Assembly (NCBI GenBank): GCA_963664325.2
Contig: CAXXDQ010000008.1
Location: 96,001 to 160,000, forward strand
Direction: 5' to 3'
Origin: Desulfomonilia bacterium
GTDB lineage: Bacteria; Desulfobacterota; Desulfomonilia; UBA1062
Length of the DNA: 64,000 nucleotides
The number at the start of each line of letters is the position of its first letter. Within the stretch, counting starts at the first letter, position 1. The position numbers were made by a program, and so were the translations under genes. Of the stretch, positions 9,941 to 53,275 are shown piece after piece. The notes beneath the pieces were generated by a model. That model searched no databases. It saw only the letters and a list, made by a program, of their open reading frames with translations, and was not told the origin of the DNA.

Positions 9941-9971
9941 AGCCCCGGGGGCGCACCCCGGGGCTTTTTCT
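9941..9971 (+). terminator. Rho-independent terminator
   Basis: AGCCCCGGGG-gcgca-CCCCGGGGCT followed by T tract. Confidence 0.85.
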
Positions 9972-11192: not shown

Positions 11193-11239
11193 CCGTCATG
11201 CTGCTTCATGATATTTTAATGCCATAAGGATGATGAATC

Positions 11240-11443: not shown

Positions 11444-11452
11444 GAGGCTGTC

Positions 11453-13088: not shown

Positions 13089-13127
13089 TGGTTTCGGATC
13101 AGTATTGCAACTTTTTCAGGGTACGTT

Positions 13128-32710: not shown

Positions 32711-33006
32711 CGGTAATCTTATATATGCGTCATCGAGCGCTTGATATTTTTCACCATCTTCACGATTTGCCATTTTACCAAGAAGATATATAATCTCTAA
32801 CTCCCAATAACTGAGAAAAGTATTGCCCTATAAAGACAATCTTTTTCCAACATGTACCCAGGGAGCAGAATGATAACAAAGAGATAGCATGGCATCTTTC
32901 TTGCTCGTTTACTGTCAGACAAAATTCGGGCGGAAGGGAACCGGATGGAAAATAATGACATTACCAGCGCATTTAATCTGTTGAAGGCAATCTGATCGGG
33001 GGGCCC

Positions 33007-37807: not shown

Positions 37808-39187
37808 ATGGTAAATAATGGAGTTAAGGAAGCCTTCACTGCCACCATGAAGCCGGACCGGATACCGTTCGGTATCAAACTCAGCTATGGAATAGGGGAC
37901 ATATCCAACAACATATTTATTGTCACTACAGGGATGTACCTTCTGTTCTTCCTGACCAATGTCGTGGGAGTCAACCCGGCCCTTGCAGGCACCATGCTGC
38001 TCTTTCCGAAGCTCCTGGACGTTGTCCTGGACCCCATCATGGGCATGATATCCGACGTCACGCGCTCGCGCTTCGGCAGGAGGCGTGTGTACCTGCTCTA
38101 CGGGGCCGTTCCTTTCGGCGTCAGCTTTTTTGCAATCTTCATCGTCCCGGGATTTCAGGCAGAGTTTGCCAAGGCCCTGCAAGTGTCGCTGCTCTTCGCT
38201 CTGGGATGTACTATTTTTGCAATGGTCAACGTCCCCTATGCCAGCATGGTCCCGGAGATGTCCGACAATTACAACGAGCGGATATCCATAACCTCGTTCC
38301 GCATGTCATTTGCATCCATCGGGGCGCTGCTGGCTGGAGGGTTGACAATGTTGCTGGTAAAAGCGGGCGGAGGCGGTGCGCACGGTTTTCGCCTTATGGG
38401 TGGCGTCTTCGGTGTTATGATTGTTATCTCCTGCCTGGTTTGCTTCTTCGGCACAAGGAAGGCCACCAGCCTGCCTCCCCATAAAGAAACACCGCCCTTG
38501 AAACAGCAGATAAGAATAGTCTTCAAGAACTATCCATTCCTGATGCTGATGTCGAGTTATTTCATGCAGGCGCTTGCCATAGGCGTGATGATGGCCGGCT
38601 TTATTTACTACGTCAAGTATGCCATGGCTCTGCCTGAGACGATCATGAATACTGCTTTCCCCATCTTCATGATAACCGGCTTGCTCTTCATCCCTGTCTG
38701 GCTGGCAGTGGGCAAGCGGCTCGGCAAGATAAAATCCTATTATATCGGGCTGGGCATCTTCACCGTTGCGATGGGGTCGCTTTTCTTTACTGATGCAGCA
38801 TTGCTTTGGCTGTTCTATGCCCAGATATTCCTGGCCGGGGTGGGCTTTTCGAGCTTCCAGCTCTTCCCCTTCTCCATGCTCCCCGATACAGTGGAGTATG
38901 ACCAGATGCAGTCCGGTCTCAGACGCGAGGGAGTGTTCTCGGGGATGTGGTCGGCCGGACAGAAGATAGCCTATTCGGTGGGGCCCCCGATCGTAGGCTT
39001 TGCCCTGGCACTTTCCGGTTTTGTTGAGAAAGGGGTCCAACCAGCCACTCTTAATACAGGTGTGCGTGCGATATTTTGCCTCTTCCCGGCGGTCATGATA
39101 TTGCTCAGCTTTATCCCTTTTAGAAAATACAAGCTCACAGAGGAGGAGTTCGAAAAAGTGAAGGCGAAAATCCTTAAGCCGCAATAG
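37808..39187 (+). CDS. MFS transporter, glycoside-pentoside-hexuronide (MelB-like) family
   Basis: DPIMGMISD.TRSRFGRRR, NVPYASMVPEM, RREGVFSG; about 12 TM segments. Confidence 0.9.
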   Translation: MVNNGVKEAFTATMKPDRIPFGIKLSYGIGDISNNIFIVTTGMYLLFFLTNVVGVNPALAGTMLLFPKLLDVVLDPIMGMISDVTRSRFGRRRVYLLYGAVPFGVSFFAIFIVPGFQAEFAKALQVSLLFALGCTIFAMVNVPYASMVPEMSDNYNERISITSFRMSFASIGALLAGGLTMLLVKAGGGGAHGFRLMGGVFGVMIVISCLVCFFGTRKATSLPPHKETPPLKQQIRIVFKNYPFLMLMSSYFMQALAIGVMMAGFIYYVKYAMALPETIMNTAFPIFMITGLLFIPVWLAVGKRLGKIKSYYIGLGIFTVAMGSLFFTDAALLWLFYAQIFLAGVGFSSFQLFPFSMLPDTVEYDQMQSGLRREGVFSGMWSAGQKIAYSVGPPIVGFALALSGFVEKGVQPATLNTGVRAIFCLFPAVMILLSFIPFRKYKLTEEEFEKVKAKILKPQ

Positions 39188-39773
39188 GGGATATGCATAT
39201 AAGGCTACCCGTTAAAAGGCTTCCATAAAAAGGAATTTACAAGCTCGGTTCGTTGAATTATTTTTAAACACCATCTTTTCGAAGACAAAAAAAATGCAGA
39301 TCATTGACGACCTGCAACATATGAGGAGGTTCTACAGGAATGTAACTTGAAGAACCTGATATTGCTTATAGACATATTTTTAAAAACTTAACACCAATTA
39401 TTTTAATATTTTTATATTTATTTCGTATATCCCCTATGATTTTCAGAAAAGGAATTCGCAAAAAGTTTAAGTATCAAGCATGAAACCGGTTTATCATAAT
39501 GACAGGACTTACGGGAATTCTTGCCGGAAACGCTGATTTGCCGGTCATTGTAATTACCTGGATCATAAATCGCATTCAAGGTTCGATTTGAGCCGGAGCC
39601 TGAATATAACCGGGTCCTTTGCTTAATATGGTTTTACATCTCGCGGGTTAAAGCTTTGTAGAAAAGATTAAGATCTGATCATCATAAAAAATAGTTTTGA
39701 TAGATGGTATTATCGTGGGGATGATTTCCAGAAAAAGAAAGGAGTCAGGTAATTCTACCTAACCCCATGAGGA

Positions 39774-39825
39774 TGTTTGGCGGTCCCAAGGGGATTCGAA
39801 CCCCTGTTACCGGCGTGAGAGGCCA
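39774..39825 (-). repeat. att site: displaced 3' part of tRNA-Glu (52-bp direct repeat)
   Basis: Identical to 51761-51812. Confidence 0.97.
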
Positions 39826-39954
39826 TTACTAGCACCTTTTTCCCTGTTTACCTCAATTTACCTGAAGTGCCTATATGATGGCTAGCAATGCCTATCTAAT
39901 GAATATTTAATTAACTTTACTTTACCTGAAATTACTTGTAAATATCACCTGGGT

Positions 39955-39986
39955 GTGGGGGATAGTGTGGGGGAAGGTGTGGGGGA
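39955..39986 (+). repeat. Three GTGGGGGA repeats, 12-bp period (probable integrase arm-type sites)
   Basis: Same motif occurs twice at 51688-51707 near the other att. Confidence 0.75.
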
Positions 39987-39999
39987 CAGGAGGTCAGAC

Positions 40000-41202
40000 A
40001 TGCCAAAGCAGGTAAGATTTGAAACAAAGTATCCGGGAGTATTTTTCATAAACGCTCAAGGCGAAACTGGTATTGAGAAGGTCTATTATATCCGCTACAG
40101 GAAGAACAGCAAACTTATCGAAGAAAAAGCTGGCTGGCAAAAGCGGGATGATATGACACCTGCCAGAGCGAACAATCTTAGAGTTGAGAGGCTTGAAGGA
40201 CGCCAGAGAACCAATGCAGAGCGCCGGGCAGAGGAAGTGGCTGCAAGAAAGGCGGAAGATTCAACCTGGACATTTAACCGTCTGTTCGGGCGTTATATCA
40301 AAGATAAATCTATTACAGACGAAAAAGAGCTTATTGATAAAGAGATTAAGGATGATGACCTCGATAAGATCGTTGCAGCGATGAAGTTCAAGAAGCCCGC
40401 TCAAATAGACATATCGAGATACAGGAAGTTCATTCAGAAACCCCTAGGAGATAAACAACCTCATGAAATCTTATTGCTGGATATTGACCGGATGCGCCTT
40501 AAATTATCCAAGACTTATAAACCTCAGACCGTAAAGCATGTGCTTAACCTGATAACAAGAATATCGAACTACGGTCACAAGAAAGGTTTATGTGAAGGCC
40601 TTGGCTTCTCAGTACAGAAACCCCGTGTTGACAATGTGGTCACGGAAGACCTTTCCCCTGATGAGTTGAGAAGGCTTCTCATAGCGATAGAGGCAGACCC
40701 GAACTGGACAGTTGCAAACATGATGCTCATGGCCTTGCATACAGGAATGAGGCGTGGCGAGCTTCTTAAATTGAAATGGGATGACATCAACTTCAATACA
40801 GGCTTCATAACGATCAGGAGTCCCAAGGGCGGGCGTGATGCCATGATACCTATAAGCCAGAAGGCCGGTGAGCTTTTAGATTCCATTGAGAGATTAGACA
40901 GCCCGTTCGTATTCCCTGGAGATAAGGGAAATCAGCGCGCACAGATATATCATGTTGTGAGTAGAATAAAAAAACGAGCTGGCTTGCCTAAAAGTTTCCG
41001 GCCCATGCACGGTTTAAGGCACGCCTATGCCTCGATGCTGGCTTCATCCGGGCAGGTTGATATCTACACCCTGCAGAAGCTCATGACGCATAAAGACTTC
41101 AGGATGACGCAACGATATGCCCATCTGAGAGATGAGACCTTAAAGAAGGCGTCAGGTATCGTAGGCGATATTATGGACGATGCAATGGAAAAGACCGGGT
41201 GA
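40000..41202 (+). CDS. Tyrosine recombinase (phage-type integrase)
   Basis: SD AGGAGG; TGMRRGE, SPKGG, HGLRH, MTH, RYAH catalytic set intact. Confidence 0.96.
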   Translation: MPKQVRFETKYPGVFFINAQGETGIEKVYYIRYRKNSKLIEEKAGWQKRDDMTPARANNLRVERLEGRQRTNAERRAEEVAARKAEDSTWTFNRLFGRYIKDKSITDEKELIDKEIKDDDLDKIVAAMKFKKPAQIDISRYRKFIQKPLGDKQPHEILLLDIDRMRLKLSKTYKPQTVKHVLNLITRISNYGHKKGLCEGLGFSVQKPRVDNVVTEDLSPDELRRLLIAIEADPNWTVANMMLMALHTGMRRGELLKLKWDDINFNTGFITIRSPKGGRDAMIPISQKAGELLDSIERLDSPFVFPGDKGNQRAQIYHVVSRIKKRAGLPKSFRPMHGLRHAYASMLASSGQVDIYTLQKLMTHKDFRMTQRYAHLRDETLKKASGIVGDIMDDAMEKTG

Positions 41203-41322
41203 TAAACTCGTTTGATTGTAAATAGGATAATGAACTTACTCCTTAATGACAAACCCGACAAAAGGGACAAAAACCATTTATCACAGTTGAATCAACTTAA
41301 CAAATATGTTAATAACATTCCT

Positions 41323-41658
41323 ATGTCTTGGACGATAGAATATTATAGCGGGAAGGTTCAGGAAGATATTTATTCTCTTCCTGCAAGCCTTCAGGCTCGC
41401 TATATTCATCTATCTGAAAGGATGCTCGTATATGGCGCGAACCTGAAAGAACCACACACAAAAGCGCTGGAAGATGGTCTGTTTGAGTTAAGACTAAAAG
41501 GCAAAGAGGGGATTGCACGTGTTCTTTACTGTACGGCTATTGGAAGCAAGATCGTCATGCTTCATTGTTTCATAAAGAAAACGGATAAAATTCCCAAGAG
41601 AGAACTAGAGACAGCAAAACACCGCATGATGGAGGTGAAGCAGAATGTTAACTCATGA
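41323..41658 (+). CDS. Type II toxin, RelE/HigB (Gp49-like)
   Basis: EPHTKALEDGLFELR, RVLYC, LHCFIKKT.K.P..EL..A..R. Confidence 0.9.
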   Translation: MSWTIEYYSGKVQEDIYSLPASLQARYIHLSERMLVYGANLKEPHTKALEDGLFELRLKGKEGIARVLYCTAIGSKIVMLHCFIKKTDKIPKRELETAKHRMMEVKQNVNS

Positions 41659-41947
41659 TAAATTTGTTAAAAAGATGTTGAGTAACCCGATCGTTAAGGC
41701 CGAATATGTCGCCCTTGAAGAAGAATTTATATTTCTTGATGAATGCCTGAAAGCGCGGAATGAAGCCGGGCTCACTCAAGCGGATGTTGCAGAACGCATG
41801 GGGACTAAAGCCCCGGCTGTAGCAAGGATAGAATCAGGCGGGGGAAGCAAGAAACATTCACCGTCCATAGCCACACTGCGTAAGTATGCAGAAGCCGTGG
41901 GATGTAAATTGAAAATTAAATTAGTACCAAAAAATAAAGCAGCATGA
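41645..41947 (+). CDS. HigA-type HTH antitoxin
   Basis: LTQADVAERMGTKAPAVARIESG, PSIATLRKYAEAVG; overlaps the toxin. Confidence 0.9.
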   Translation: MLTHDKFVKKMLSNPIVKAEYVALEEEFIFLDECLKARNEAGLTQADVAERMGTKAPAVARIESGGGSKKHSPSIATLRKYAEAVGCKLKIKLVPKNKAA

Positions 41948-41973
41948 CACGAACATTCAGGGGATAGGGAAAA

Positions 41974-42702
41974 ATGACAGTCAAAGGATATGACCTCCCA
42001 ATCTCCGAAGAACAATTGTTGGAGTATGTAAAGAACGGAGTGCTTACGCCTGTGGATAAGAATGGGCTCAGAGTCTTCCCTGTCAACATGAATCACTTTT
42101 ATCAGTTATATAATGAACTGAGGGGCGATATTGCAGAACTGGAATATGCAATTTTACAATCAAAAAAGACTAATCAGGAGTTTGAGATTGAAATACGGAG
42201 ATCGTTGGAACTTGATGGGAAAGCCCCCGAAGACTATGTAGCAGTAATAAACAACTTTCTTGAAAAGACACTACCCAGGAAACGGAAAAAGTTTGAGCAG
42301 GACATCAAGAAACTAACCCCGAAAGTAAAAAAACTTGAAAAAGAACTGCATCCAGCAATGGTGTGGAATGGCATTGACAGCCTTCCCCCCGGACTGTGGG
42401 AGCAGAATATCAAGCAACTGATTGACAGCTATTACGACAGGGAACAGATTGAACTATTAAAGCTCAAGGCCCCTGTGGAAGAAACTAATCCCTTATTCAT
42501 CAGCGATTCTCAATTGAGGGGCCAGGAATTGATAGGGAAAAAGGCGATCATGAATTATATTCACATAGGCACTAAAAGTGTAAAAACCTTTAAGCGCTTC
42601 GAAAATGATGGACTACCTGTTCATAGAAGGCCAGGGAAAAAAGGAAGGGGGAGGTTATACGCATTCACAAATGAGATAGCCTTGTGGCAAAGAAGAAAAT
42701 AG
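41974..42702 (+). CDS. Hypothetical protein, coiled-coil with possible C-terminal HTH
   Basis: 242-aa ORF; C-terminal LIGKKAIMNY...GLPV...AFTNEIALW resembles small phage DNA-binding domains. Confidence 0.6.
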   Translation: MTVKGYDLPISEEQLLEYVKNGVLTPVDKNGLRVFPVNMNHFYQLYNELRGDIAELEYAILQSKKTNQEFEIEIRRSLELDGKAPEDYVAVINNFLEKTLPRKRKKFEQDIKKLTPKVKKLEKELHPAMVWNGIDSLPPGLWEQNIKQLIDSYYDREQIELLKLKAPVEETNPLFISDSQLRGQELIGKKAIMNYIHIGTKSVKTFKRFENDGLPVHRRPGKKGRGRLYAFTNEIALWQRRK

Positions 42703-42897
42703 TTGAAGATTGCTATATCCGCAAAAATTTACATTATCCCTGAAAAGCTTGTGTTTAACTGATTCTATCCCATATTAACCCTAAATAAATCTGCTATATC
42801 GGAACCACATCCGAACCCTATCCAAACCACATTAGTTGAATTGCGGTTATTAGGGATGTGTATATGTAAAGGACATCTCAGGAACAAGGAGGATGCC

Positions 42898-43098
42898 GTG
42901 GTAAATGAAATTATGAAATTCATCGATGAAAAAGAAGCTGCAAGGATTACTGGAATTGCAGTCCAGACATTGAGGAATTATCGTCAGAAAAGTAAAGGCC
43001 CCGCATACTGCAAGGTCGGATCATCCATTAGGTATTTCTTGCCAGATTTGCAAGAGTTTATGCTGAAATGCCGGATTGACCCATCGACCAGAGTATAA
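42898..43098 (+). CDS. Excisionase/AlpA-like HTH protein
   Basis: IDEKEAARITGIAVQTLRNYR..GPAYCKVG..IRY; SD AGGAGG. Confidence 0.85.
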   Translation: MVNEIMKFIDEKEAARITGIAVQTLRNYRQKSKGPAYCKVGSSIRYFLPDLQEFMLKCRIDPSTRV

Positions 43099-43100
43099 TC

Positions 43101-43727
43101 ATGACAAGAAATCAAACCCCTCCACCCGTTGGGAGCGGATTGAGGGGGAAGGCAATCGAAAGGGCTCTAAATACTGAAAAAATAATGCCATGCCTCAACC
43201 TTGGTGTCAAGTCTACGTCTCCTATTAAGGAAAGCCTTCAAGCGCATGGCTGGGCGATTAAGAACACTGCGGTCTTATCACCTGAAATGATATACTCACG
43301 GGCTTTTAACACTCTCTCTCCAACAGCATTGCGAGTTCTAATTAGACTCCTTCAAAAACGTCATTGGGAGAAAACAGGCAAAAGGCGAAAGGCCGATATT
43401 AAATATACCAATAATGGACTGATTTTTACATACGCCGAAGCAGCCTGTTTTGGTATACCCCATGCCTCATTCAACCGCGCCATAAAGGAACTTGTGGCGA
43501 AAGGCTTTCTTGTCATTGAGCATCAAGGCGGGAGCTTTTCCCAGGGCAACAAAGACCCCTCGATATACGGTTTGGTTGGTGACTTCAAACATTACGGAAC
43601 CGACAACTATAAACCAAGAGAAAAGCCACCTTTAATTCGGTACAGTAGGGGATTCACAGAATTCAATGAAAAGAGAAAAACGAATTTGTCGCACTCACGG
43701 ATGACTGTTGATAACAGTCAATTATGA
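43101..43727 (+). CDS. Winged-helix protein, putative replication initiator
   Basis: AF..LSPTAL.VL..L...NNG.IFTY...SFNRAIKELVAKGFL; lies after xis; iteron-like repeats at its 3' end. Confidence 0.6.
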   Translation: MTRNQTPPPVGSGLRGKAIERALNTEKIMPCLNLGVKSTSPIKESLQAHGWAIKNTAVLSPEMIYSRAFNTLSPTALRVLIRLLQKRHWEKTGKRRKADIKYTNNGLIFTYAEAACFGIPHASFNRAIKELVAKGFLVIEHQGGSFSQGNKDPSIYGLVGDFKHYGTDNYKPREKPPLIRYSRGFTEFNEKRKTNLSHSRMTVDNSQL

Positions 43728-44010
43728 GTGTCGAAGGGACAAAAACAAGCCGGAGAGGGGTATCAAAAATGGCTGTGGAAAAAAACAAGAGACGGGACCA
43801 GGAATCATCACATAAAGTGTATTTGTGGAAATATTACAGGCTTCAGGCAAATTTCACCTCTCCACAGTCACGGATGAGTGACTTTATATATTATACCAGC
43901 CCCTTGTCCTATCTGTTGGGCCTTTCAGGTTTTGACCTCAGACCAGACATAAACCATGCGCGGGCCGAAAAATCACAATACAGAAACAAAAATAATAAAG
44001 GAGAAAAAAC

Positions 44011-44241
44011 ATGTTGATCGCAGAAATGGAAAAAAACGCATTAGAAGTTATAAGGGTAAGTCTTACCGAATTTCACAACCACAGGTTTGTTGATTGCCGT
44101 GTGTATTACCAGGACGATCAAGGCGAGTGGAAGCCGACCAAAAAAGGCATCGCCCTGAACGAGGGCACTATTGACGGCGTGATAAAGGCCCTGGAAGAAG
44201 GGCGTGTGCAACTTCAATCGGATGAAGGTCCACAGTTATAG
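44011..44241 (+). CDS. PC4/p15 (YdbC-like) single-stranded DNA-binding protein
   Basis: IRVSLTEF...VDCRVYY...WKPTKKGIAL. Confidence 0.88.
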   Translation: MLIAEMEKNALEVIRVSLTEFHNHRFVDCRVYYQDDQGEWKPTKKGIALNEGTIDGVIKALEEGRVQLQSDEGPQL

Positions 44242-44492
44242 GCCGGACACAGTTCCGGTGAAATGAAGGTATCAAGGTGTCGGCTAACTGAAAGCGGTAT
44301 GAGGAGCGTATGCCACGGCCAGCCTGTGCTTACCTGGGCAGGCTTATACCGGGGATGTTTTCAATGCCTTTTATTATATTATTATATTAACAATTTTGAA
44401 TACTAATATTTTATTATTATATAAGCAGATTCCTAATCTCGCAGGAACCTGGGATATTTGACATCCTGCCGGAATAGTAGCATTTAAAAAGC

Positions 44493-44966
44493 ATGAAAAC
44501 AGCAACGACGACAGAACCCAAAAGAAAGATAAGCAAGACGAGACTTGATTGTATGCTGCGAAGACGTAAAATAATCGAGGCATGTCTTGAAGGAAAACCC
44601 TTGAAAGAAACCGCTATTGCAGTGGGTTTATCGCCACGGTCAGCGGGAACACAGGTATCTCAAATATTAAAAGAACCGAAAGTTCAGCAGTATTTTGCCG
44701 AAATATTGGAGACAGAGGGGCTATCTGATAAAATATTGGCAGAAAAGCTCCAATATCTATTGAATGCTCGCAATATCATCTATTTTCAGCACAAAGGACG
44801 TGTTACTGATGAAAGGGATGTTCCGGCTCACGAAACACAACGCAAGACCCTGGAACTGATCGCCCGGCTGAAAGGCCACCTGAAAGAAGCTGATCGGGGT
44901 AGCGTAGATGTCCAGGTCAACCTCATGGGCCTTGTTGTCCAGGCACTAAAGCAGGATCAGGACTGA
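44493..44966 (+). CDS. Putative terminase small subunit-like HTH protein
   Basis: AIAVGLSPRSA...SQILKEPKVQ resembles the TerS N-terminal HTH; C-terminal KTLELIARLKGHL. Confidence 0.6.
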   Translation: MKTATTTEPKRKISKTRLDCMLRRRKIIEACLEGKPLKETAIAVGLSPRSAGTQVSQILKEPKVQQYFAEILETEGLSDKILAEKLQYLLNARNIIYFQHKGRVTDERDVPAHETQRKTLELIARLKGHLKEADRGSVDVQVNLMGLVVQALKQDQD

Positions 44967-45341
44967 TTCTATAAATATGATGAGAGAAACTCGAATTGTT
45001 ACGGAGTAGTAACAATTCAAAGCTAGGGTCATGCTCTGATATGTGTTTTCAAACAAAGTTCTCTCTAGGGTGCTTTAAGCTCATTCTGAGGTCTATTTCA
45101 GGGCTTTCTGTTCATGTCTGATGAGTGCTTGCTTGCAGTGTGGTATGAATGATTGATGACAGTTAGCCACATCAATGGAATCTCTCATACCCCCCCCGTG
45201 GTAGTTGGAATACCCGAAAAACCGGCACTGCCCATTCAAGGAAAACCTATCAATGGGTACGCTACAGGTAGCGCATGCACCTTGTTTTAACACCATGATA
45301 ATATTAACATCTTGTAATTACAATAGGTTGCAGCGTTAAAA

Positions 45342-45369
45342 TGTCCCGATAAGGGTCATTATGTTAAAT
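45342..45369 (+). other. dif-like XerC/XerD recombination site
   Basis: TGTCCCGATAA-GGGTCA-TTATGTTAAAT; right arm identical to the E. coli XerD arm; 11-6-11 spacing. Confidence 0.85.
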
Positions 45370-45845
45370 TGCTATGGCAGTTGGTACATCCGGCAGGATA
45401 CTACCGCCTACCCATTGCAGGCATAGGCAAGGCAGTGTGGCAACAGAATACAATAATGATCTGCTGACAGGTATTCATTGTGGTGCCGAGCCGATGATCG
45501 ATATCAACCCTCCCTACCCACCAAAGGGGGGGGTATGCGGGCCACTAACCCGTCCTTTCAATATTAACAAGATAGCCACAGACTGCGATTCTATTTTTAA
45601 AAATTCCAAAAATAAAGGCAGGAGATTTAGTCTGGATCAATCGACAACTTGTTAAGGTCTCCAGATGAGACCTGCAAAACCTGTCCATTCCAGATAACCT
45701 CAAGATATCTGGACTTTTTATGAGCCTTAAGAAATGAAAACATTCGTGATATACGTTATACTATTGCATGTATGGCTTTCAGTGCATATCTGCGGCAGAA
45801 ACCTATAGTTTTTCAACTTTATATAATGAAGATCCCTTTCGGAGA

Positions 45846-45912
45846 TGATAACGTGCCACGTAACCGGCTGGCGCGTTTTTTGCGCCAGTCCGAGTTGACG
45901 CGGTTGTTCTGG
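45846..45912 (-). repeat. Integron attC site (attC1)
   Basis: Minus strand CCAGAAC-5nt-CGTCAACT...GGTTACG-6nt-GTTATCA; imperfect hairpin with extra C. Confidence 0.75.
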
Positions 45913-46119
45913 CCTTTTTTCATGCCCTGGTGGCTACTGGTAGTTTCAATCGCTTGCTCAGCCTTCACCGTGATCTTGATCCTGGGTCTTGTAGTTGCCT
46001 CTATCGCGCCTTTAGTCCGGCCTGTATCGTAGCTCCGCGGCCGCGCCAGCAGATTTGGCGTCGTCCCTTCGGAATGGTTTTTGATTCTGGCCTTTGTCGT
46101 GGCCGCTATTTATGATTGG

Positions 46120-46181
46120 GCAGAAAGAGCCGGCTCAGCAGCGACGCGTTAGAGGCGACCGACTGAAGCCGAATATTAGCA
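46120..46181 (-). repeat. Degenerate attC site (attC2)
   Basis: Minus strand TGCTAAT-5nt-GCTTCAGT...GCTGAGC-6nt-TTTCTGC; both core boxes mutated; ~60 bp downstream of the preceding gene. Confidence 0.55.
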
Positions 46182-46239
46182 GATGTCATGTTTGGTTAAA
46201 CAACTTGATGATAATCACAGCATGATCCCTTTAGCTCTT

Positions 46240-46715
46240 TCAACCCCCGCCTATATCTTCGGCAACTTCGTCTGTCTTCTGCATTGCAGCTTCATAAATT
46301 AATCTATCCCTTGCATCAGCAAACTCGTAATAGAGATCTCGCGCGTATGTATCATCCATGTTTGGCAGTAAGTTAGTCGCGAAGATAGATGACTTCATTT
46401 CTATTTCTTTAGGGATAACGCCAGCAAAATACTCAGAAGGTTGCTTATTTGAAATCTTCTTGTTAGACGCAGAGGGCTGAAAACAGATATTGACCAGCCA
46501 ATTAATTTCATCAAACTTAAATCCTTTTTTAACTAGGAAGCTTCGGGGGAAGATATGATGATATTCTTTAGCGTTAAAGCAGGATAGCGCATCGCCAATA
46601 TTAATGCGGGCGCCATTCGTAAGATCTTGCGGGTGATTATCTGCCATTAATAATAGAGTTGCCTTTGACCACGGATCGTATCTAGACAAGGGTCTTTTGA
46701 AACTCCCTGGCTTTT
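46240..46715 (-). pseudogene. C-terminal fragment of a DUF262/GmrSD-type protein
   Basis: KEYHHIFP.SFL...N.C...ASSNKKISNK.PSEY; 5' part missing. Confidence 0.65.
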
Positions 46716-46724
46716 GCTAGCATT

Positions 46725-47369
46725 TTGAGTCAGCTTGCGAAAACTCGGTCAAAGTGGTGGGAAATCGCTGGTAATCCCGAAGAACCATTTATGGAGCCAG
46801 TACCTTTAGAAGAATATAAAGAATTTAAAAAATTATTTTACGAACACCAGCTTTTCTTTGACAGCGATTGCCTTTTAGCAATTGACTTGGCCATTAAAGC
46901 TATGACTGATTCCTTCCCCGCCTATGACTTTGACGGACCACTCCAAAAAAAAGAATGTTGGGAATCATATGAGCGGCTTGAGTATATTCGGGATCGCATG
47001 GCCCAAATATTCCAAGAAAAGATCGGAGTTACCTCTGCCAATCAAGCAAAATATGAAATAGCCCTTCTTGCTTTAATAAAATTGCTTAACTCATATCATT
47101 TCTCTATAATTGGACTACCAGTTACAGGTAATTTGAAATTATCCTACCGTGATGAGGCCCATGAAGCTGTGACGAAGGCTAAACAAAACATTGGTGAGCT
47201 AATTACCAAGGCAAAAGAATTTACAGAGTATTTATTAAAAGAAGGTTACTTTCATGAAGCATCAACAACGGCAGATAGATGTCTGGCAATATTAGAAAAT
47301 GATCAATTTAAATTACTATCCAACCAAGTCGCTCCACCCGATCGCGGGCCGCTGGCCCGCTCCGGGTGA
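46725..47369 (+). CDS. Hypothetical cassette protein, probably 5'-truncated
   Basis: 214-codon ORF without a good start/SD, ending inside attC3. Confidence 0.55.
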   Translation: MSQLAKTRSKWWEIAGNPEEPFMEPVPLEEYKEFKKLFYEHQLFFDSDCLLAIDLAIKAMTDSFPAYDFDGPLQKKECWESYERLEYIRDRMAQIFQEKIGVTSANQAKYEIALLALIKLLNSYHFSIIGLPVTGNLKLSYRDEAHEAVTKAKQNIGELITKAKEFTEYLLKEGYFHEASTTADRCLAILENDQFKLLSNQVAPPDRGPLARSG

Positions 47370-47383
47370 GCTTTTCGTTAGCC
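47318..47383 (+). repeat. Integron attC site (attC3)
   Basis: ATCCAAC...GCTCCACCCG...CGGGTGAGC...GTTAGCC; 66 bp; extrahelical C. Confidence 0.88.
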
Positions 47384-47418
47384 AGCCCACAAAAAAGTAA
47401 GCTTAATGGAGGAATGAA

Positions 47419-47668
47419 ATGATATTTGAAATCAAAGGCGGGAAACGGAATGGAGAACGCTTTGAGGCAGATTTTAAAGAAGGAACAAAGCTTTTTAAAA
47501 GAGGATATGTTACTGTGCATGATGTTGCCGCAGATGGATCAGTTATGACCTCAAAAGTTGTTAAGATAGAACCGGTTTTTGAGGCGCAACGAGATGAAGA
47601 GATAGTTGAACTCAAATAAGATAGAGACCAAGATTCCAATTACCGTAAAGACTAAACATAAAGAGTAG
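47419..47668 (+). CDS. Small hypothetical cassette protein (probable frameshift near 47615)
   Basis: SD GGAGG; the alternate frame continues KIETKIPITVKTKHKE to a TAG abutting attC4. Confidence 0.55.
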
Positions 47669-47739
47669 ACTAACCATACCTTGCACTCGGACGGCAATTC
47701 TGCTACACTCTATTACCGCCATTGAAAGCCACGTTAGGT
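47668..47739 (+). repeat. Integron attC site (attC4)
   Basis: GACTAAC...TTGCACTCGGACGGCAAT...ATTACCGCCATTGAA...GTTAGGT; inverse core matches upstream GTTAGCC at 6/7. Confidence 0.8.
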
Positions 47740-47769
47740 ATACTTAATCTTCTTTTTTAGGGAGGTGAT

Positions 47770-48156
47770 ATGAGCGATAATTATTATCAAGAAGAGGAGC
47801 ATCCAGATATATATGAAACCACCAGTATATCAAATGCTCTAACATTTCAGTTTGAAGTAGTACTTACACAAATTCATTCACAATTAGCATCAAGCAAAAT
47901 CATTGTAGTTATTCTCTCCATCTCATTGACTCTTTCCACAATACTGTTTCAAGTACAACCTTATTGGATTTTTAAATCAGAACTCATGAAATTTCTTCCA
48001 GCAACGTTAGTATTAATTATTTTCTGTCTGGTAAACACTCTACTGAGGGTGCTTAAACTTTTTGAAGCAGCCCGAGAAGGAAGGAAAGCTCTATTGAAGT
48101 TGAATCAAGCTAAAGAAGAAGTTCTCTTTTTCGTCAATAATAAGGGCACTCTATGA
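47770..48156 (+). CDS. Hypothetical 2-TM protein (cassette gene 1)
   Basis: SD GGAGGT ~25 bp after attC4; two hydrophobic segments. Confidence 0.75.
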   Translation: MSDNYYQEEEHPDIYETTSISNALTFQFEVVLTQIHSQLASSKIIVVILSISLTLSTILFQVQPYWIFKSELMKFLPATLVLIIFCLVNTLLRVLKLFEAAREGRKALLKLNQAKEEVLFFVNNKGTL

Positions 48157-48677
48157 ACAAGATGGATGCAGAGCTTAGGTCTTTGGTAGCTGTGAATAAA
48201 GAGGCCACTCATATACTAGCATCTATAATCCGATCCTCCAATACAGCTTCAAAACAGTCTAGTTCCACACTTATTGGAACTCTGGGTGGGTTCATCGGTA
48301 TGGGCGTATCTTATGCCTTAACTTTAATCGCACCGATATCTTTACCAGTCGTTAGCGTTTTCCTTACAGGTTTGGGTATTATTATTGCTTTATTGGTTCA
48401 TCGTGGTCCACGAAGATTGAATTTTGAGATGCGACTAGAAGAGAATAGAATCTTAACTGAAGAAATTCTCTCAAGAATAAAGAACTTGCCTAGAAATGCG
48501 CCACAGGAAGTGAAGGATGAGCTATGGCATACTTATCAAACTTTAAATTCTATGCTCGGAAATCAAAGCAAAGATCATCTAGCATTGCCAGCACCAGGAT
48601 CATCGTCAGTAAAAAAAGTGCGTCATAAAGCTATTACAGAGCAGGACAATACTAATAATTCAAAGGTTGATACCTAA
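48153..48677 (+). CDS. Hypothetical 2-TM protein (cassette gene 2)
   Basis: ATGA overlap with the upstream gene; TAA stop lies inside the attC5 inverse core ACCTAAC. Confidence 0.78.
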   Translation: MNKMDAELRSLVAVNKEATHILASIIRSSNTASKQSSSTLIGTLGGFIGMGVSYALTLIAPISLPVVSVFLTGLGIIIALLVHRGPRRLNFEMRLEENRILTEEILSRIKNLPRNAPQEVKDELWHTYQTLNSMLGNQSKDHLALPAPGSSSVKKVRHKAITEQDNTNNSKVDT

Positions 48678-48735
48678 CCAGCCCATCCAGATGGACGCGG
48701 GCTGCCGCCTGCGCTGCTGATGTGCATCGTTGTAG
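48672..48735 (+). repeat. Integron attC site (attC5)
   Basis: ACCTAAC (exact complement of GTTAGGT at the cassette start)...CATCCAG...CTGATG...GTTGTAG. Confidence 0.85.
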
Positions 48736-49064
48736 TCATCTCCGGAAGAGAGTTCTAGTCTAAAAGTAACAAATTGAAATTTATAGTTTTATCATGTTAT
48801 TAATAATTGAAATCGATCTGAAAATAACTCATTTCTTGAGCCTCTCACTGGCTGGTTTGTATTTAAGATATCATCGGAAGACCAAAAGCTATTCTAGTTT
48901 TTTAAAAATGAGGATTTATCCCAGCTATTTGTACTCAGGTTTATGCTTTGAGCGGTTATTGTTTATATATATTCTGTTTCTCAGTTATTGCTTAAGCAGT
49001 AATCATAGCAAAATAATAAGAACCTACCAGTTATGAGCCGAGAGCCACCACGGATACATTACAT

Positions 49065-49505
49065 CTAATCATGAGATTTTCTGTTCCTAATTTCATCAAT
49101 CATTTTCTTGATATCATTCTTAACTGTTGAGGCTATTTTGTTCATCTTCCAAGAAAAATGAAAGAATGCCATTGCCAGAAACAGGCTGCTTAATGCCGGA
49201 ACCCAACACCACAATAATCTTGGCTGTACAATGGTCTGTATAAAAAATCCTGGTATCATCCCCATGAAGAGATGTGCCCATTGTCTATAATGCTTGGCCA
49301 TCTCATCATATTGATTGAAACTGGTTTGAAGACTCTCAAGTTTTTCCAGTTCAGTGTCCATGACAATAAAACCGAGGATGGGTGGGGGGATAGGAATTTT
49401 AATAGGACGCTTTATTGTTAATTTGTTATCGTACATAGGGGTAGTAAGATTATTGTGTTGCCTGCTCAGAATAAGTTTACGATTGGATCTTTTGACATCT
49501 ATCAT
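49065..49505 (-). CDS. Hypothetical membrane protein, probable cassette gene
   Basis: SD GGGAGG; bracketed by GTTACAT (49616-49622) and ATGTAAT directly after the stop. Confidence 0.55.
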   Translation of the reverse strand: MIDVKRSNRKLILSRQHNNLTTPMYDNKLTIKRPIKIPIPPPILGFIVMDTELEKLESLQTSFNQYDEMAKHYRQWAHLFMGMIPGFFIQTIVQPRLLWCWVPALSSLFLAMAFFHFSWKMNKIASTVKNDIKKMIDEIRNRKSHD

Positions 49506-49692
49506 GTCCCACCTCCCTTTTTGGGAATTGGCTATGAACGCCACTCCAAAACGGTATGCAAGGTCTAAATCCCTTGACTCGGGGAGGAAGTTGGCTTAAG
49601 CAGAAAGTGATTTGAATGTAACGTTCTGTTATAAGCCGCCTTCCCGTCCCCGACCGGATCGGAAGGCGATTTCCTTCTTCTTTATAGACGAG

Positions 49693-50061
49693 GATATTTG
49701 ATGATCCGTCAAGGATATCGATCATCACTACATATTCGCCTTTTGGATAACCATCAGGAACAAGCACGACATCATCATCTTCCTCTGATGCCATAACGCA
49801 AACCTTGCCTATATAGCTGAGGGCATTTATAAAAGCCCTGTCGGCAAATACATCGAGCTTCTGCTGTTCGTCGCCAGTTATATTCTTTGCTCCAGCAGAA
49901 CCAAGAATATTTTCTGCAAGCCCCGCCTGCGAAACCTGTGCGGAAACCACCTTGGCAGCCAGGACTATCTGGGTCAACACCGAACTGAAATCCCCTGTTC
50001 CTCCGTAAAGCCTTTGCTCTTCTATTATATGCCTTTCAATAGTCATCAGGATGTCTTTCAT
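49693..50061 (-). pseudogene. fbp: Class I fructose-1,6-bisphosphatase, 3'-truncated
   Basis: GDEQQKLDV, MASEE, D(I)LDGSSNI, then abrupt loss of similarity. Confidence 0.88.
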
Positions 50062-50075
50062 TGATCAGCCTCCAC

Positions 50076-50981
50076 TTATGATTGTATGTTCATGCTCCTG
50101 GCAAGCCAGCCTGTCATCTGGTCAACAACCATTTTCAGAACATCCCTCGGCAGGAAATATTCGCCTGCATTTTCTGACATCCAGCTGGTAATCTCTTCAG
50201 ACGTCAACTCCGCGCTGTTTGTTCTCTTCAATGAATCTTCTATCATCGTCCGGGTCTCAACCGCCGCCTTAATCGATTTGGGAATAAAGGACCTTGCGTC
50301 CTCGCCGGTAAAAGCCCCGTAATGTTCTGCACCATGAAAATCCACACCGTATCCAGCCATTTTAACAAGGCTTGCCTGATACAGATCAAAGTTCGAGTTT
50401 GCAGCTGCAAAAACCAGTCCCCCGAAAGGAATGCCGCCTGCATCAGAGGCAAAGAGGGCTTTTAACTCGGGGACATAAACAGCCATCGAGCATGTGCTGT
50501 GGCCGGGCACCATCATGAATTCAAGTGTCAGGTCTCCGATTCTTCTGGTTTCACCCTCGTCCGGCATGTCATCAACAGGTATTGTATCGAAATCCAATCC
50601 CAGTTCATCTGCCCTATCTGCCAGACCGTTGTTCGAAAGCACCATACGATTAATACCTTTTATCGCATCTATAACAGCAGGCTTGGCAAGCTGAACGGCT
50701 CCTCTGGCTGAAGCCGTTATACTAACCCACGGCCATCGCTTTTTAAAATACGGAACAATGCCTACATGATCGAAGTGCGAGTGATGGATCACCAGACGGC
50801 TTATCGACTTTTCGTAAGTACCTGTATTAGCAATCTGGCTTTGAACGTCAGGAACGATATAAGTCATTCCTCCGCCGAGAATCGCATACTCCGTCCTACC
50901 GTCAAGAAGATAGACGCATGATTCCCTGCGGCCTAAAAGTGTTATTCGGTCGGTTACTTTTCCGGGAGTGTTAAATATCAT
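50076..50981 (-). CDS. Metallo-beta-lactamase-fold hydrolase
   Basis: HSHFDH, PGHS, ASD, EHYG. Confidence 0.88.
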   Translation of the reverse strand: MIFNTPGKVTDRITLLGRRESCVYLLDGRTEYAILGGGMTYIVPDVQSQIANTGTYEKSISRLVIHHSHFDHVGIVPYFKKRWPWVSITASARGAVQLAKPAVIDAIKGINRMVLSNNGLADRADELGLDFDTIPVDDMPDEGETRRIGDLTLEFMMVPGHSTCSMAVYVPELKALFASDAGGIPFGGLVFAAANSNFDLYQASLVKMAGYGVDFHGAEHYGAFTGEDARSFIPKSIKAAVETRTMIEDSLKRTNSAELTSEEITSWMSENAGEYFLPRDVLKMVVDQMTGWLARSMNIQS

Positions 50982-51068
50982 GACGGCCCCTAAATTAAAG
51001 TTTCATCATATCTTGTGAAGATTTTATATTTTAAAAATTTGCTTAGTGCGCCGACAAGATGCATTCGA

Positions 51069-51265
51069 TCAAGGAACCTGGGTAAAACCCTCTTCCTTTG
51101 CAAGCTCGTCAAAATCCAGCGTCAGAGCGTCCATTGTTTCCGCATCCGGTGAAATTTTATCCTTTGTATCAACGGCCTTGATATAATGGCCGCATTCCAT
51201 ACAGAAATATACCTTTACACCGTCAATGACTTCGACATCAAAAAAAGCTGGGTTTTTCATGGTTA
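51069..51265 (-). pseudogene. FdhE-like C-terminal fragment
   Basis: CMECGHYIKAVD...DALTLDFDELAKEEGF; N-terminus missing. Confidence 0.65.
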
Positions 51266-51764
51266 GTATTTCCACAATAAGTGCATTTAACCCTTGGGGA
51301 CCTCCATGAAAACCCATAGAATGTCTATTTGAGAACTCTCTGAGATTTTTTCAAATTCGACCTGTTGACGGAATATCGGTTTAGGCCTGTTTAAGTACTG
51401 CCGTGCTTATAATTACGAAGTGGTCAGCAAGCCACAGCCTCCCACAGCGATGATCCTTTGCGAGGCAATACAAACATCTTCACCTGGGCCTTGAGGGTGG
51501 GTAATACCTGTGGCGGTTATTTAATATCATGCCGGGGGTGCTAAACATAAAATATAAGCTTAGGCAATGAGGTTTGCTAAAATATTTCAGGGGAAGTGGG
51601 ATGAAGGTACTAATTCAGAAATGCCTACTTGTTATCAAAAGTTTCGCCAGAGAAACGGGACTGATTTCTTTCAAAACAAGCCTATGGGTGGGGGATAGTG
51701 TGGGGGACATACCTATGAAAATGAAAAAGGGTTAGGCAAATCTACCTAACCATTTGGAATTGTT

Positions 51765-51840
51765 TGGCGGTCCCAAGGGGATTCGAACCCCTGTTACCGG
51801 CGTGAGAGGCCAGCGTCCTAGACCCCTAGACGATGGGACC
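51765..51840 (-). tRNA. tRNA-Glu(CTC)
   Basis: GGTCCCA...CTGGC-CTCTCAC-GCCGG...GTTCGAATC...GGGACCGCCA; full cloverleaf with CCA. Confidence 0.97.
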
Positions 51841-51850
51841 ATAAAAAATT

Positions 51851-51924
51851 TGGCTGGGGGACCTGGATTTGAACCAAGATAGACGGAGTCAGAGTCCGTA
51901 GTCCTGCCGTTGGACGATCCCCCA
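51851..51924 (-). tRNA. tRNA-Gln(CTG)
   Basis: TGGGGGA...ACGGA-CTCTGAC-TCCGT...GTTCAAATC...CCCCCAGCCA. Confidence 0.96.
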
Positions 51925-51934
51925 GCGACAATTT

Positions 51935-51963
51935 CTTCTAGCGATTGACCTTTTTATTGTCAA
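51935..51963 (-). promoter_or_regulatory. Sigma70 promoter of the tRNA operon
   Basis: TTGACA-17bp-TAGAAG just upstream of tRNA-Gln. Confidence 0.6.
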
Positions 51964-52181
51964 GGTGTTTTTCCATTATCTTTCCCGCCTTTATGAAGGC
52001 GTTGCCTGCCTGCTTCTATTATCAGATTGGCTGCAAAAACACCTATAAAAATAAATACCCATGTCCCGGCCGATATATTGAGGTCTGGCTGGACTTTCCG
52101 GATGATGAAAGAGATCATAACCGAGGCTATGATTGATACTATCATTGATATGCTCAGGTACTGCCAGTCAATCTTTATCAT
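51960..52181 (-). CDS. Small 2-TM hypothetical protein
   Basis: 73-aa hydrophobic ORF with SD-like GAGG. Confidence 0.55.
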   Translation of the reverse strand: MIKIDWQYLSISMIVSIIASVMISFIIRKVQPDLNISAGTWVFIFIGVFAANLIIEAGRQRLHKGGKDNGKTP

Positions 52182-52288
52182 ATTAAAAATAACCTCGCTG
52201 TATACTTGTTTAAAACCCTTGAAAAATCTTGCAGCTGGTCTTGATATGATTATATTTATATTAAAAGATAACTTGTTGGGAAGGGAAA

Positions 52289-53275
52289 ATGCCGGCTAAT
52301 CTTTCACCTGATTATTATGAAGCAGAAAAACGATACAAAGAGGCAAAGACCAGCGAGGCGAGGATTGAAGCACTGCAGGAAATGCTTGCCGTCATTCCGA
52401 AGCATAAAGGGACAGACAAGATGCAGGCAGACCTCAAGCACCGCATCTCAAAGCTGAAGGAAGAATCCCAGAAGAAAAGGGGGGCGGTAAAACAAAAAAG
52501 CATATATTCAATTGACAAAGAAGGTGCTGCTCAGATTGTGATTATCGGGCCTCCGAATTCAGGAAAATCTTCCATTCTGGCCTCTCTGACAAATGCCGAA
52601 CCCGAGATTGCCCAGTTTCCGCATACGACGCATAAACCGCTGCCAGGCATGGCCTTGTTTGAAAACGTTCAGTTTCAGCTTATAGATACACCGCCGCTGA
52701 CAGCGGATTATATTGATCCTTTGATGATGGACATGATACGCCGCTCGGATATTGCAGCTATTGTGCTTGACATAAAATCAGATCTTATAAGCGAGATCGA
52801 GGAAATTCTGGAAATAATGGCTGAAAGCAGGATATTCCCTGAAGGCAGCGAAATACCGGACGGAACTCGCAGACCAGTTACCTTCAAAAAGACCATAATC
52901 CTGGTGAACAAGGTCGATAATGATTTGCTCATAGAAGATTTCAATACGTTTGTTGAACTTGTGGACTTGAAAATAACTGCAATTCCCATATCGATATTGA
53001 ACAGCATCAATCTGGACCTTTTTCTGAAAACGTTATTCGACCTGTCAGGCATCATGAGGATTTATTCGAAGTATCCCGGCAAGGATCCGGATTTGGATGA
53101 GCCGTTTGTAATCTCCAAGGGCAGTACGCTTGAGGAACTTGCCGGGAAGATTCACAAAGAATTTATTACAAAGCTCAAATTTGCACGGGTATGGGGAAAA
53201 TCGGCACATGACGGGCAGATGATACAGCATGACCATGTTTTACAGGATGGAGATATAGTGGAACTTCATATTTAG
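52289..53275 (+). CDS. DRG-like GTP-binding protein with TGS domain
   Basis: IPKHKGT, GPPNSGKS, FPHTT, DTP, NKVD, C-terminal TGS (HVLQDGDIVELH). Confidence 0.88.
   Translation: MPANLSPDYYEAEKRYKEAKTSEARIEALQEMLAVIPKHKGTDKMQADLKHRISKLKEESQKKRGAVKQKSIYSIDKEGAAQIVIIGPPNSGKSSILASLTNAEPEIAQFPHTTHKPLPGMALFENVQFQLIDTPPLTADYIDPLMMDMIRRSDIAAIVLDIKSDLISEIEEILEIMAESRIFPEGSEIPDGTRRPVTFKKTIILVNKVDNDLLIEDFNTFVELVDLKITAIPISILNSINLDLFLKTLFDLSGIMRIYSKYPGKDPDLDEPFVISKGSTLEELAGKIHKEFITKLKFARVWGKSAHDGQMIQHDHVLQDGDIVELHI

Follow-up and report, generated by a model that had tools for sequence, protein, structure and literature searches.

We analysed a stretch of 64,000 nt, hereafter the window, from a genome of the Desulfomonilia group UBA1062 (GCA_963664325.2, contig CAXXDQ010000008.1, forward-strand positions 96,001-160,000). 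The window contains an island with a repeat-to-repeat unit of 11,987 bp, which is integrated at a tRNA-Glu(CTC) gene and carries a homologue of the phage small terminase (TerS), making it a candidate phage satellite. The genome to which the window belongs (G000) is assembled in 9 contigs and is 95.6% complete. The features of the island are listed in Table 1.

The tRNA-Glu(CTC) gene at the right border and the adjoining tRNA-Gln gene (51851-51924, minus strand) were predicted by ARAGORN, and both are confirmed by Rfam. The two borders are formed by an exact 52-bp direct repeat, the attachment (att) repeat, which corresponds to positions 29-76 of the tRNA-Glu(CTC), anticodon loop included, and 4 nt beyond the 3' end. 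A 47-nt core of this repeat is present in two exact copies in the window, compared with zero expected in 100 shuffles. A terminator scan places a hairpin on the minus strand to the left of each att copy, at 39741-39766, just outside attL, and at 51730-51751, and the island therefore carries its own tRNA 3' half and terminator. Repeats of the GTGTGGGGGA type are found near both ends; they are candidate integrase arm sites, and the excised circle would have copies on both sides of the core, as expected. The G+C content is 0.375-0.454 in the segments covering 39500-49999, versus 0.55-0.57 leftward at 33000-36999.

In the genomes G001 and G003 the tRNA-Glu(CTC) site has a single att copy and zero element proteins within 15 kb; therefore the island is an insertion. 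At these island-free loci (L035, G001:C40 ~15178-15272; L036, G003:C4 ~760-856) a motif similar to the arm repeats is located just 3' of the tRNA terminator, and it may be the scar of an earlier occupancy. Of five public runs, four of contig type from one sample and one of raw reads from another, the four compared with 39000-52500 contain neither the 39826-51813 joint nor a circle junction, which is uninformative at a depth of ~2-10 and with rare forms lost in contigs; one of the runs covered just the tRNA parts of this interval. A promoter scan was also uninformative, with 24 sites found and 26 expected.

Table 1. Features of the tRNA-Glu(CTC) island, in window coordinates. Values after family names are E-values.
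Feature	Position	Strand	Evidence or remark
attL, 52-bp copy of the tRNA-Glu(CTC) 3' part	39774-39825		Exact match of 51761-51812
Arm-type repeats, 12-nt GTGTGGGGGA-type unit, 2.8 copies	39953-39986		Tandem Repeats Finder, repeat family D2
Tyrosine integrase, 400 aa from ATG 40000	40000-41202	+	PF00589 8.7e-31, profile positions 3-171 of 172; phrog_1 1.2e-49
Gp49/HigB-type toxin	41212-41658	+	PF05973 9.5e-27; phrog_2523 2.8e-36; match from residue 39, probable start 41323
HTH_3 antitoxin/regulator	41645-41947	+	PF01381 6.2e-12; phrog_1373 1.4e-27
242-aa backbone protein	41974-42702	+	No family match (Pfam, PHROGs, NCBIfam)
11-nt repeat, 3.1 copies, upstream of the HTH_17 gene	42796-42829		Tandem Repeats Finder
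HTH_17 excisionase/AlpA-type regulator	42841-43098	+	PF12728 9.2e-8; phrog_66 'excisionase and transcriptional regulator' 2e-9
208-aa winged-helix protein, candidate replication initiator/helicase loader	43101-43727	+	Own match: MarR_2 0.002, weak
97-aa ORF, overlaps its neighbours by 4 and 7 nt	43724-44017	+	No family match
PC4-like protein (ssDNA-binding fold family)	44011-44241	+	PF02229 7.3e-14
1,238-bp core, 100% identical to the C3 element (PC4 3' part, AT-rich spacer, TerS, 340 bp downstream)	44068-45305		Candidate packaging cassette
TerS homologue, 157 aa	44493-44966	+	Weak direct matches; mainly gene neighbourhood of homologues
Orphan cargo, ~4.3 kb	45368-49692		Small ORFs, long ORF-free stretches
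Captured host fragment (~123 first fbp codons, whole MBL-fold hydrolase gene, FdhE_C-like 3' end)	49693-51355	-	
Right arm: further arm-repeat copy (51688-51709) and terminator hairpin (51730-51751) after the rebuilt tRNA	51688-51760		Repeat families D1-D3, terminator scan, alignment with relatives' tRNA loci
attR (51761-51812) within intact tRNA-Glu(CTC) (51765-51840)	51761-51840	-	ARAGORN, Rfam, repeats
Abbreviations: aa, amino acids; ORF, open reading frame; MBL, metallo-beta-lactamase; ssDNA, single-stranded DNA.

The nine genes from the integrase to TerS are all on the plus strand, intact and tightly packed. The integrase is located at the edge of the element, next to attL, a feature of the core of the chromosomal islands that are phage-inducible (PICIs). 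Its ORF opens at a GTG at 39955, within the arm repeats, the probable start is at 40000, and there are no stops. The HTH_3 antitoxin is 94-97% identical to copies adjoining tRNA-Glu(TTC) in G001 and G003. For the 242-aa protein, the C-terminal 72 aa are 57% identical to the positionally equivalent 259-aa protein of a sibling island in genome G002, and just one further homologue was found, at 53% identity. The 11-nt repeat upstream of the HTH_17 gene is a possible operator. The HTH_17 protein is 52-64% identical to its counterparts in the G002 sibling and in a sibling on contig C4 of the same genome, and no match to the AlpA Pfam family is listed for it at E<=0.01.

Among the 20 island ORFs scanned with Pfam and PHROGs there is no match to any capsid, portal, large terminase (TerL), tail, lysis, relaxase, conjugation or primase/helicase family, and NCBIfam gave nothing on 11 window ORFs. 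Nor was there a match to a capsid-morphogenesis or size-redirection gene in the island ORFs, several of which have no known family. These results bear out the observations of the first-pass annotation, which had described an att repeat over the anticodon loop, an intact integrase, a co-oriented module with excisionase, winged-helix, PC4-like and TerS-like genes, and no recognisable structural, lysis, conjugation or primase/helicase genes. As it had proposed, the element integrated at tRNA-Glu is bounded, and its set of genes is like that of satellites.

The gene of the 157-aa TerS homologue is separated from the PC4 gene by a 251-bp AT-rich spacer. The protein matches Terminase_2 with an E-value of 0.0031 (18.6 bits, under the cut-off of 26.1) and phrog_641 with 2.8e-6 (residues 23-70); these direct TerS family matches are confined to the N-terminal helix-turn-helix (HTH), residues 23-86. 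A PDB search with the TerS profile gave no significant match (best E 0.094). The AlphaFold model has a predicted local distance difference test (pLDDT) score of 73.6 and is made up of five helices plus a beta hairpin and a pair of long helices. In Foldseek, the two highest-ranking matches of this model are to 3zqq, the SF6 small terminase (probability 0.93-0.97, E 9e-3, template modelling score, TM, 0.25-0.31), and a wide search with VIA-align gave generic helical matches only, with Z<=7.5.

The gene neighbourhoods of the homologues are decisive. In total, 26 unnamed homologues of the 157-aa protein were found, and a scan of viral contigs with their alignment gave nine loci at 33-55% identity, the closest one of known context being L022 (55%). 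Eight of the nine were scanned with Pfam; L029, on a short contig, repeats the arrangement of L028 and was left out. In all eight, the TerS homologue is upstream of a large terminase and/or a portal gene. Six of them (L022-L027) have a ~490-aa protein 0.5-3.4 kb downstream of the TerS homologue, with mutual identities of 67-81% and a match to Terminase_6N in two of the six; it is followed by a P22_portal gene and in three of the six, where the locus is long enough, by a P22 coat gene. At L030 a Terminase_3 gene starts 5 bp downstream of the TerS homologue, and at L028 a 514-aa ORF and a T7-type portal are found downstream. The sole match in a phage collection is the annotated TerS of MW202743, a circular podovirus (E 6e-4, 28.5% identity over 125 aa, 80% of the query), which lies directly before the large terminase and the portal. 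The homology of the 157-aa protein to phage TerS thus measured spans 80-100% of its length. With Terminase_2, the homologue L033 scores 28.3 bits, above the cut-off of 26.1, and L026 scores 24.8. A PDB search with a phage TerL gave no significant match. We conclude that the 157-aa protein is a member of a divergent small-terminase family of phages with P22-type head modules.

In a tree of 36 TerS sequences the phage-borne and island-borne copies are intermixed, with long branches that make the deeper order unsafe. The window protein pairs with P0002 (support 98/99) in a supported set of 10 rows, including the phage locus L026 and the genome locus L031. One of the viral contigs shows a separate peculiarity: at L024:2874-6035 a LAGLIDADG_3 domain divides the portal match of the 1,053-aa P22-type portal protein into two stretches, suggestive of an intein or of a homing-endonuclease insertion.

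The TerS profile is found in five of the 122 genomes of the class, namely G000 with two copies, G024 and three weak or fragmentary cases. The G024 locus is 100% identical to L032 and was counted once. Outside phages, members of the family are located in small islands. At L033 the order is integrase, D12 methylase, D5_N primase-helicase and TerS, followed by restriction-type genes, and at L032 a resolvase adjoins TerS, followed by T5orf172/ResIII and Eco57I-type genes. There are no recognisable phage genes around the homologue at L031, and the one at L034 is a 48-residue fragment only.

Within G000, tblastn gave no match to the related phages' TerL, portal and coat proteins, and family searches with Terminase_6N and P22_portal were empty, while control genomes respond. 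With no such gene in either the island or G000, the TerS therefore stands without its motor. The genome G062 belongs to the same bacterial family and has pieces of TerS, of TerL (C-terminal half) and of the portal (N-terminus) in canonical order (L049, G062:C236:1-8000, 1859-3885). They look like a decayed prophage of the candidate helper type, which shows that such phages have visited this bacterial family and points to no particular helper.

Close relatives of the 208-aa winged-helix protein are few, and its family comprises 640 representative clusters at E<=0.001 in a full HMMER scan. When 48 family members were aligned, 15 of them match phrog_186, 'DnaD-like helicase loader' (best 2.2e-10), and four match replication-initiation PHROGs, one of these O-like; the Pfam matches are to MarR_2 (10), HTH_36 (3) and DnaD_N (2). 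A PDB search with the family profile gave no significant match, and there is no clear iteron array near the gene. The slot of this gene is occupied by Phage_rep_O in one sibling island and by a DUF3987 primase-helicase in another. A role as an initiator or loader that recruits the host replisome is plausible but indirect. In metagenomes, the window protein as query had no match, and for a 56% homologue 13 loci were found, mostly on short contigs, and at none of them was TerS, PC4 or this kind of integrase present.

The 97-aa ORF is judged to be a real gene only from the tight packing. The PC4-like protein after it is 95% identical to a copy in a second element of the same genome, on contig C3, and 46% identical to a lone chromosomal gene on contig C2. 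The latter (L037, G000:C2:12000-30000, 8497-8748; PF02229 1.8e-18) is located between genes for a PKD-domain protein and an acyl-CoA dehydrogenase, and PC4-like genes are therefore not confined to mobile elements here. A tblastn search of 17 loci found no PC4 beside TerS homologues elsewhere, and among the literature matches listed no paper couples 'PC4-like' with 'phage satellite' or 'small terminase'.

A comparison of the island with its own genome by BLAST shows that it is a mosaic. The stretch 43990-45367 (1,378 bp) is 98.8% identical to a stretch of contig C3, and all 16 differences are at the two edges of this block, which leaves the identical core of Table 1. An independent short-read unitig corresponds exactly to 44068-45305, and its depth is about the sum of the two contexts; therefore the duplication is real and not an assembly slip. 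The C3 element (L014, G000:C3:668000-687000, ~4900-11700, i.e. ~672.9-679.7 kb of C3) contains, in order, an integrase of 408 aa, a 72-aa ORF, an 821-aa primase-helicase (NrS-1 polymerase HBD and DUF3987), a 199-aa ORF, PC4 and TerS. After the primase-helicase there are three exact 15-nt iteron-like repeats (L014 positions 9219, 9349 and 9457). The two elements thus have the same TerS (100%), nearly the same PC4, and the same AT-rich spacer and downstream sequence. They differ in that the C3 element has an unrelated integrase (25% identity) and the primase-helicase, and in that neither att sites nor a tRNA target were found for it.

The captured fragment in the right-hand part of the island (1.66 kb) is 94% identical to G000:C3:742082-743745 (L019, G000:C3:738000-748000, 4083-5746). 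The C3 source stretch has complete copies of both fbp (339 aa) and the 238-aa FdhE_C-like gene, whereas the island copy truncates both and keeps only the MBL-fold gene whole. The other three species of the genus have orthologues of this stretch at 78-79% identity, and the captured piece therefore came from this lineage. Between this fragment and the shared block lies the orphan cargo, in which two ORFs are predicted by inspection to be membrane proteins. No Pfam, PHROG, NCBIfam or PADLOC match above noise was obtained for the cargo, and its DNA has no match in 40 relatives, the only matches being short pieces of 45526-45833 in the own genome. PADLOC, run on 17 ORFs, found no defence system in the cargo and weak toxin-antitoxin-type matches only.

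The integration genes are shared with other islands, one of which resides in the same genome. An 8.0-kb island in tRNA-Glu(TTC) (L015, G000:C4:579000-595000, 4099-12147) has 48-bp exact repeats and an integrase 87% identical to that of the window. It carries a Peptidase_S24 fragment, a HigB/HTH pair, a 265-aa protein, HTH_17, a 784-aa DUF3987 primase-helicase with a weak Zn_ribbon_DnaG match, and a 170-aa end gene with no family assigned. This end gene was considered as a TerS relative and rejected, as hhalign with the TerS profile showed no relation. The second sibling is a 6.5-kb island at the orthologous tRNA-Glu(CTC)-tRNA-Gln site of G002 (L016, G002:C28:8000-22000, 4025-10659; integrase 81.5% identical). 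Its genes are an RHH/ParE pair, a 259-aa protein, HTH_17, Phage_rep_O and a 104-aa last gene with an HGGxSTG domain (44.2 bits, cut-off 29) and a weak match to a TerS model (8e-5); this gene possibly represents another type of packaging gene carried by the same chassis. Matches to the window integrase at E<=1e-60 are found in four of the 52 genomes of the family.

A more distant relative is the 13.3-kb tRNA-Met island of G023 (L038, G023:C56:68500-88499, 1994-15393), with 60-bp repeats and an integrase of 53% identity (48% by local tblastn). It carries a TrwC relaxase, a TrwB coupling protein and a GmrSD_N protein, and is an integrative mobilizable element on a related integration module. Since the sibling islands have other replication and transfer modules, the integration module is thus a chassis common to islands with different means of replication and transfer, and the window island is one of a modular set of tRNA-Glu islands.

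Of the known satellites, the island is most easily compared with the PICIs. In the passages of PMC10085698 on which we draw, the PICI components are an integrase, a regulator, a primase-replicase, capsid morphogenesis and a small terminase, the last being 'responsible for redirecting the packaging'; accessory genes follow terS and there are otherwise no structural or lysis genes. The pathogenicity islands of Staphylococcus aureus (SaPIs) are also described there as being without the capsid-morphogenesis component. The island resembles PICIs, pac-type SaPIs included, in its size of ~12 kb, in the lack of structural and lysis genes, in a TerS homologous to phage TerS, and in the order of an edge integrase, a putative AlpA/excisionase-type regulator, a replication module, TerS and accessory genes. 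It differs in having a winged-helix protein of a DnaD-like/initiator family and a PC4-like protein and no primase-replicase, in the lack of a recognisable capsid-morphogenesis gene, in a regulator of the HTH_17 and not the AlpA family, and in the toxin-antitoxin pair directly after the integrase. With three of the five components (integrase, regulator and TerS), it would count as 'Type C' in the terms of these passages, which set such three-component elements (>6000) aside as ambiguous, possibly defective or other elements. Having an integrase, pri-rep and TerS, the C3 element comes nearer to the canonical PICI set than the tRNA-Glu island does.

Other satellites share part of this scheme. The marine virion-borne elements (VEIMEs, integrative mobile elements encapsidated in virions) are described in the relevant parts of PMC9618062 as having integrases, AlpA/excisionases, and primase/helicases or plasmid-type initiators, with a TerS closest to local phages and no capsid genes, and as being packed as concatemers in full-size capsids. 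Compared by description only, the island is likewise a small integrative element with a tyrosine integrase, an excisionase, TerS and no major capsid genes; VEIMEs are defined by their presence in virions, whereas the island is known from its genes alone. [quoted passage not shown] The island is similar to that description, and to that only, in its reduced gene content and the lack of capsid-remodelling genes, and differs in host group and core genes. With P4-like satellites, capsid-forming PICIs (cf-PICIs) and PICI-like elements (PLEs) it has in common an integrative and, as proposed here, helper-dependent type and a similar size. However, no island ORF matches the P4-type primase (alpha) or, by PHROG or Pfam, any other P4-type gene (for psu, delta, sid and epsilon no dedicated models were used). 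The island ORFs also lack the capsid, portal, large terminase and head-tail matches of cf-PICIs, and the island integrase is a tyrosine recombinase while the PLE type is a serine recombinase.

Against this background, 'a new satellite family', as the first-pass annotation put it, is too strong: an integrase, an AlpA/excisionase-type gene, a replication gene, TerS and no capsid is the PICI-type or marine virion-borne scheme, as far as it is set out in the parts of PMC10085698 and PMC9618062 cited. The annotation was right to relate the protein at 44493 to TerS, given homologues at the TerS position of P22-like and other phage contigs and the Foldseek match to 3zqq. The prospect that the homologues would always be parts of full prophages did not materialise, as they are also present in small islands without a large terminase (the C3 element, L032 and L033). 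The annotation had missed the 94% host copy in the right part and the duplication of the PC4-TerS block in the same genome.

Taken together, the gene content and the neighbourhood homology make it most likely, in a judgement only moderately on the favourable side, that the island is a helper-dependent phage satellite of the PICI type. In its composition it is a mosaic variant of the PICI-type or marine virion-borne kind with a non-canonical replication module. We favour a satellite because the element is bounded and has an intact tRNA, an integrase and an excisionase-like gene, because the membership in the TerS family is indicated by the viral loci, MW202743 and 3zqq while the motor is missing, and because the same TerS is found in the primase-bearing C3 element and its relatives in the L033 and L032 islands. 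Further reasons are the link of the 208-aa family to replication initiators, the presence of Phage_rep_O and of an HGGxSTG gene with a weak TerS match in the G002 sibling at the same tRNA, and the empty sites of G001 and G003, which make the island an insertion.

According to this proposal, the integrase and the HTH_17 excisionase-like protein would cut the island out at the 52-bp att sites, with the GTGTGGGGGA-type repeats as arm sites. The 208-aa protein would recruit the host replisome in place of a primase-helicase, assisted by the PC4-like protein. The island TerS would then bind a pac site, probably within the 1.24-kb cassette identical in the two elements, and pass the DNA of the island on to an infecting phage's large terminase, the phage being one with a P22-type head module. 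As none of the genes was recognised as capsid-resizing, packing would proceed by headful, with the DNA in the form of multimers. The Gp49/HTH pair may stabilise the integrated island, and the right-hand 6.4 kb would be orphan cargo and captured host DNA.

Several observations weigh against a satellite. The primase-replicase, a PICI core gene, was not found in the island, and the 208-aa protein of the window has no replication-family match of its own in Pfam or PHROGs, such matches to the helicase loader being found in 15 of 48 relatives only. The identity of TerS is weak from sequence and fold alone and comes mainly from the neighbourhoods. No helper is known, and the cognate TerL type is present in one of the 122 genomes of the class, G062, as fragments only. 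The integrase clade is not tied to satellites, as its 53% relative drives the relaxase and coupling-protein island L038. About half of the element (the orphan ORFs, the ORF-free gaps and the two truncated host genes) looks unselected, and the identity of the TerS block with the C3 copy could come from passive recombination between co-resident elements and not from a selected function. At tRNA-Glu(TTC) in G001 (L018, G001:C73 4695-5417) and G003 (L017, G003:C21 4065-5698) only a Gp49/HTH remnant is found, 90-97% identical to the window pair; in G003 a 168-aa integrase stump and an att copy are also kept, and the toxin-antitoxin pair seems to outlast the island.

Alternatively, the island may be a decaying mosaic that has kept its integration module, is no longer moved by phages and has received a functionless TerS block by recombination with C3. 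The 1,238-bp core identical to C3, with differences at the block edges only, is what recent gene conversion would leave, and the captured host fragment with its two truncated genes, the 4.3 kb of orphan sequence, the decay in place seen in relatives down to an integrase stump and toxin-antitoxin remnants, and the lack of helper-type phage genes in G000 all fit. We regard decay as the most serious of the alternatives and still clearly less probable than a satellite, given nine intact, co-oriented and tightly packed genes from integrase to TerS and att repeats that are exact over 52 bp. In addition, the 208-aa protein has a relative (86%) and TerS another (68%), found a single time each and on a contig of identical length, 3,918 bp, which suggests a linkage elsewhere that is unproven. 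It is also conceivable that the island is not transduced at all and that its TerS-like protein serves the host or the island as a packaging decoy against incoming phages, or is a plain HTH regulator; the restriction to the N-terminal HTH of the direct family matches and the restriction-type genes next to the TerS relatives in L032 and L033 would agree with this. However, the homology to phage TerS extends far beyond the HTH, the model has a hairpin and long helices after this domain, and interference and self-packaging are not mutually exclusive in known satellites, so that we consider such a role improbable.

The island is very unlikely to be what is left of a full prophage after deletion of its structural and lysis genes. 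Searches of it revealed no piece of any large terminase, portal, coat or tail gene; the three islands whose integrases are close (81-100%) measure 6.5-12 kb and likewise have none, and the C3 element, which has the same TerS, is small as well and encodes a primase-helicase, even if the closest TerS relatives of known context are in phage contigs (L022, 55%) and a decayed TerS-TerL-portal remnant exists in G062, a genome of the same family. To transfer by conjugation, as an integrative mobilizable element, we give the least credence of all: the L038 island with its TrwC relaxase and TrwB coupling protein does show what a 53% identical integrase can be combined with, but the 20 scanned ORFs of the window island match no relaxase, coupling or other conjugation family, although an origin of transfer (oriT) may be present.

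A further, doubtful reading sees in the 1.24-kb stretch a portable packaging cassette, consisting of a pac site and its TerS, that moves between integrative replicons. Any recipient replicon would then become a satellite of the same P22-type helper phage, and satellite status would be a swappable module, not a lineage. The tRNA-Glu island family would be a chassis fit for phage-borne or conjugative transfer, on the basis of its primase, Rep_O or winged-helix modules, of this TerS or the HGGxSTG gene, and of the relaxase in a distant cousin. Work on phage satellites has concentrated on a few pathogens and marine groups, and other environmental bacteria have hardly been studied in this respect. 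The locus offers a bounded candidate with a verified TerS homologue, and a pair of elements in the same genome with an identical TerS block and different integrase and replication genes. Together with the sibling islands with swapped modules, this pair allows an experimental test of which module gives helper-dependent transfer. Without mobilisation, the island would simply add to the known mosaic tRNA islands.

In the left flank of the island, a conserved block is located at 39283-39414 on the minus strand. It occurs one to three times per genome, with 15 further loci, of which one is in the own genome and the other 14 are spread over ten relatives. The block does not correspond to a tRNA, and Rfam gave no match for it (best E 0.15). 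On the minus strand it has a ~45-nt core with a 7-bp hairpin and a CCUCCU motif, similar to an anti-Shine-Dalgarno sequence. The core is followed by a GC hairpin, both sides of which vary in concert (three variants), and by a run of eight T. The block looks like a small RNA with a terminator, and its copy in the window appears degenerate.

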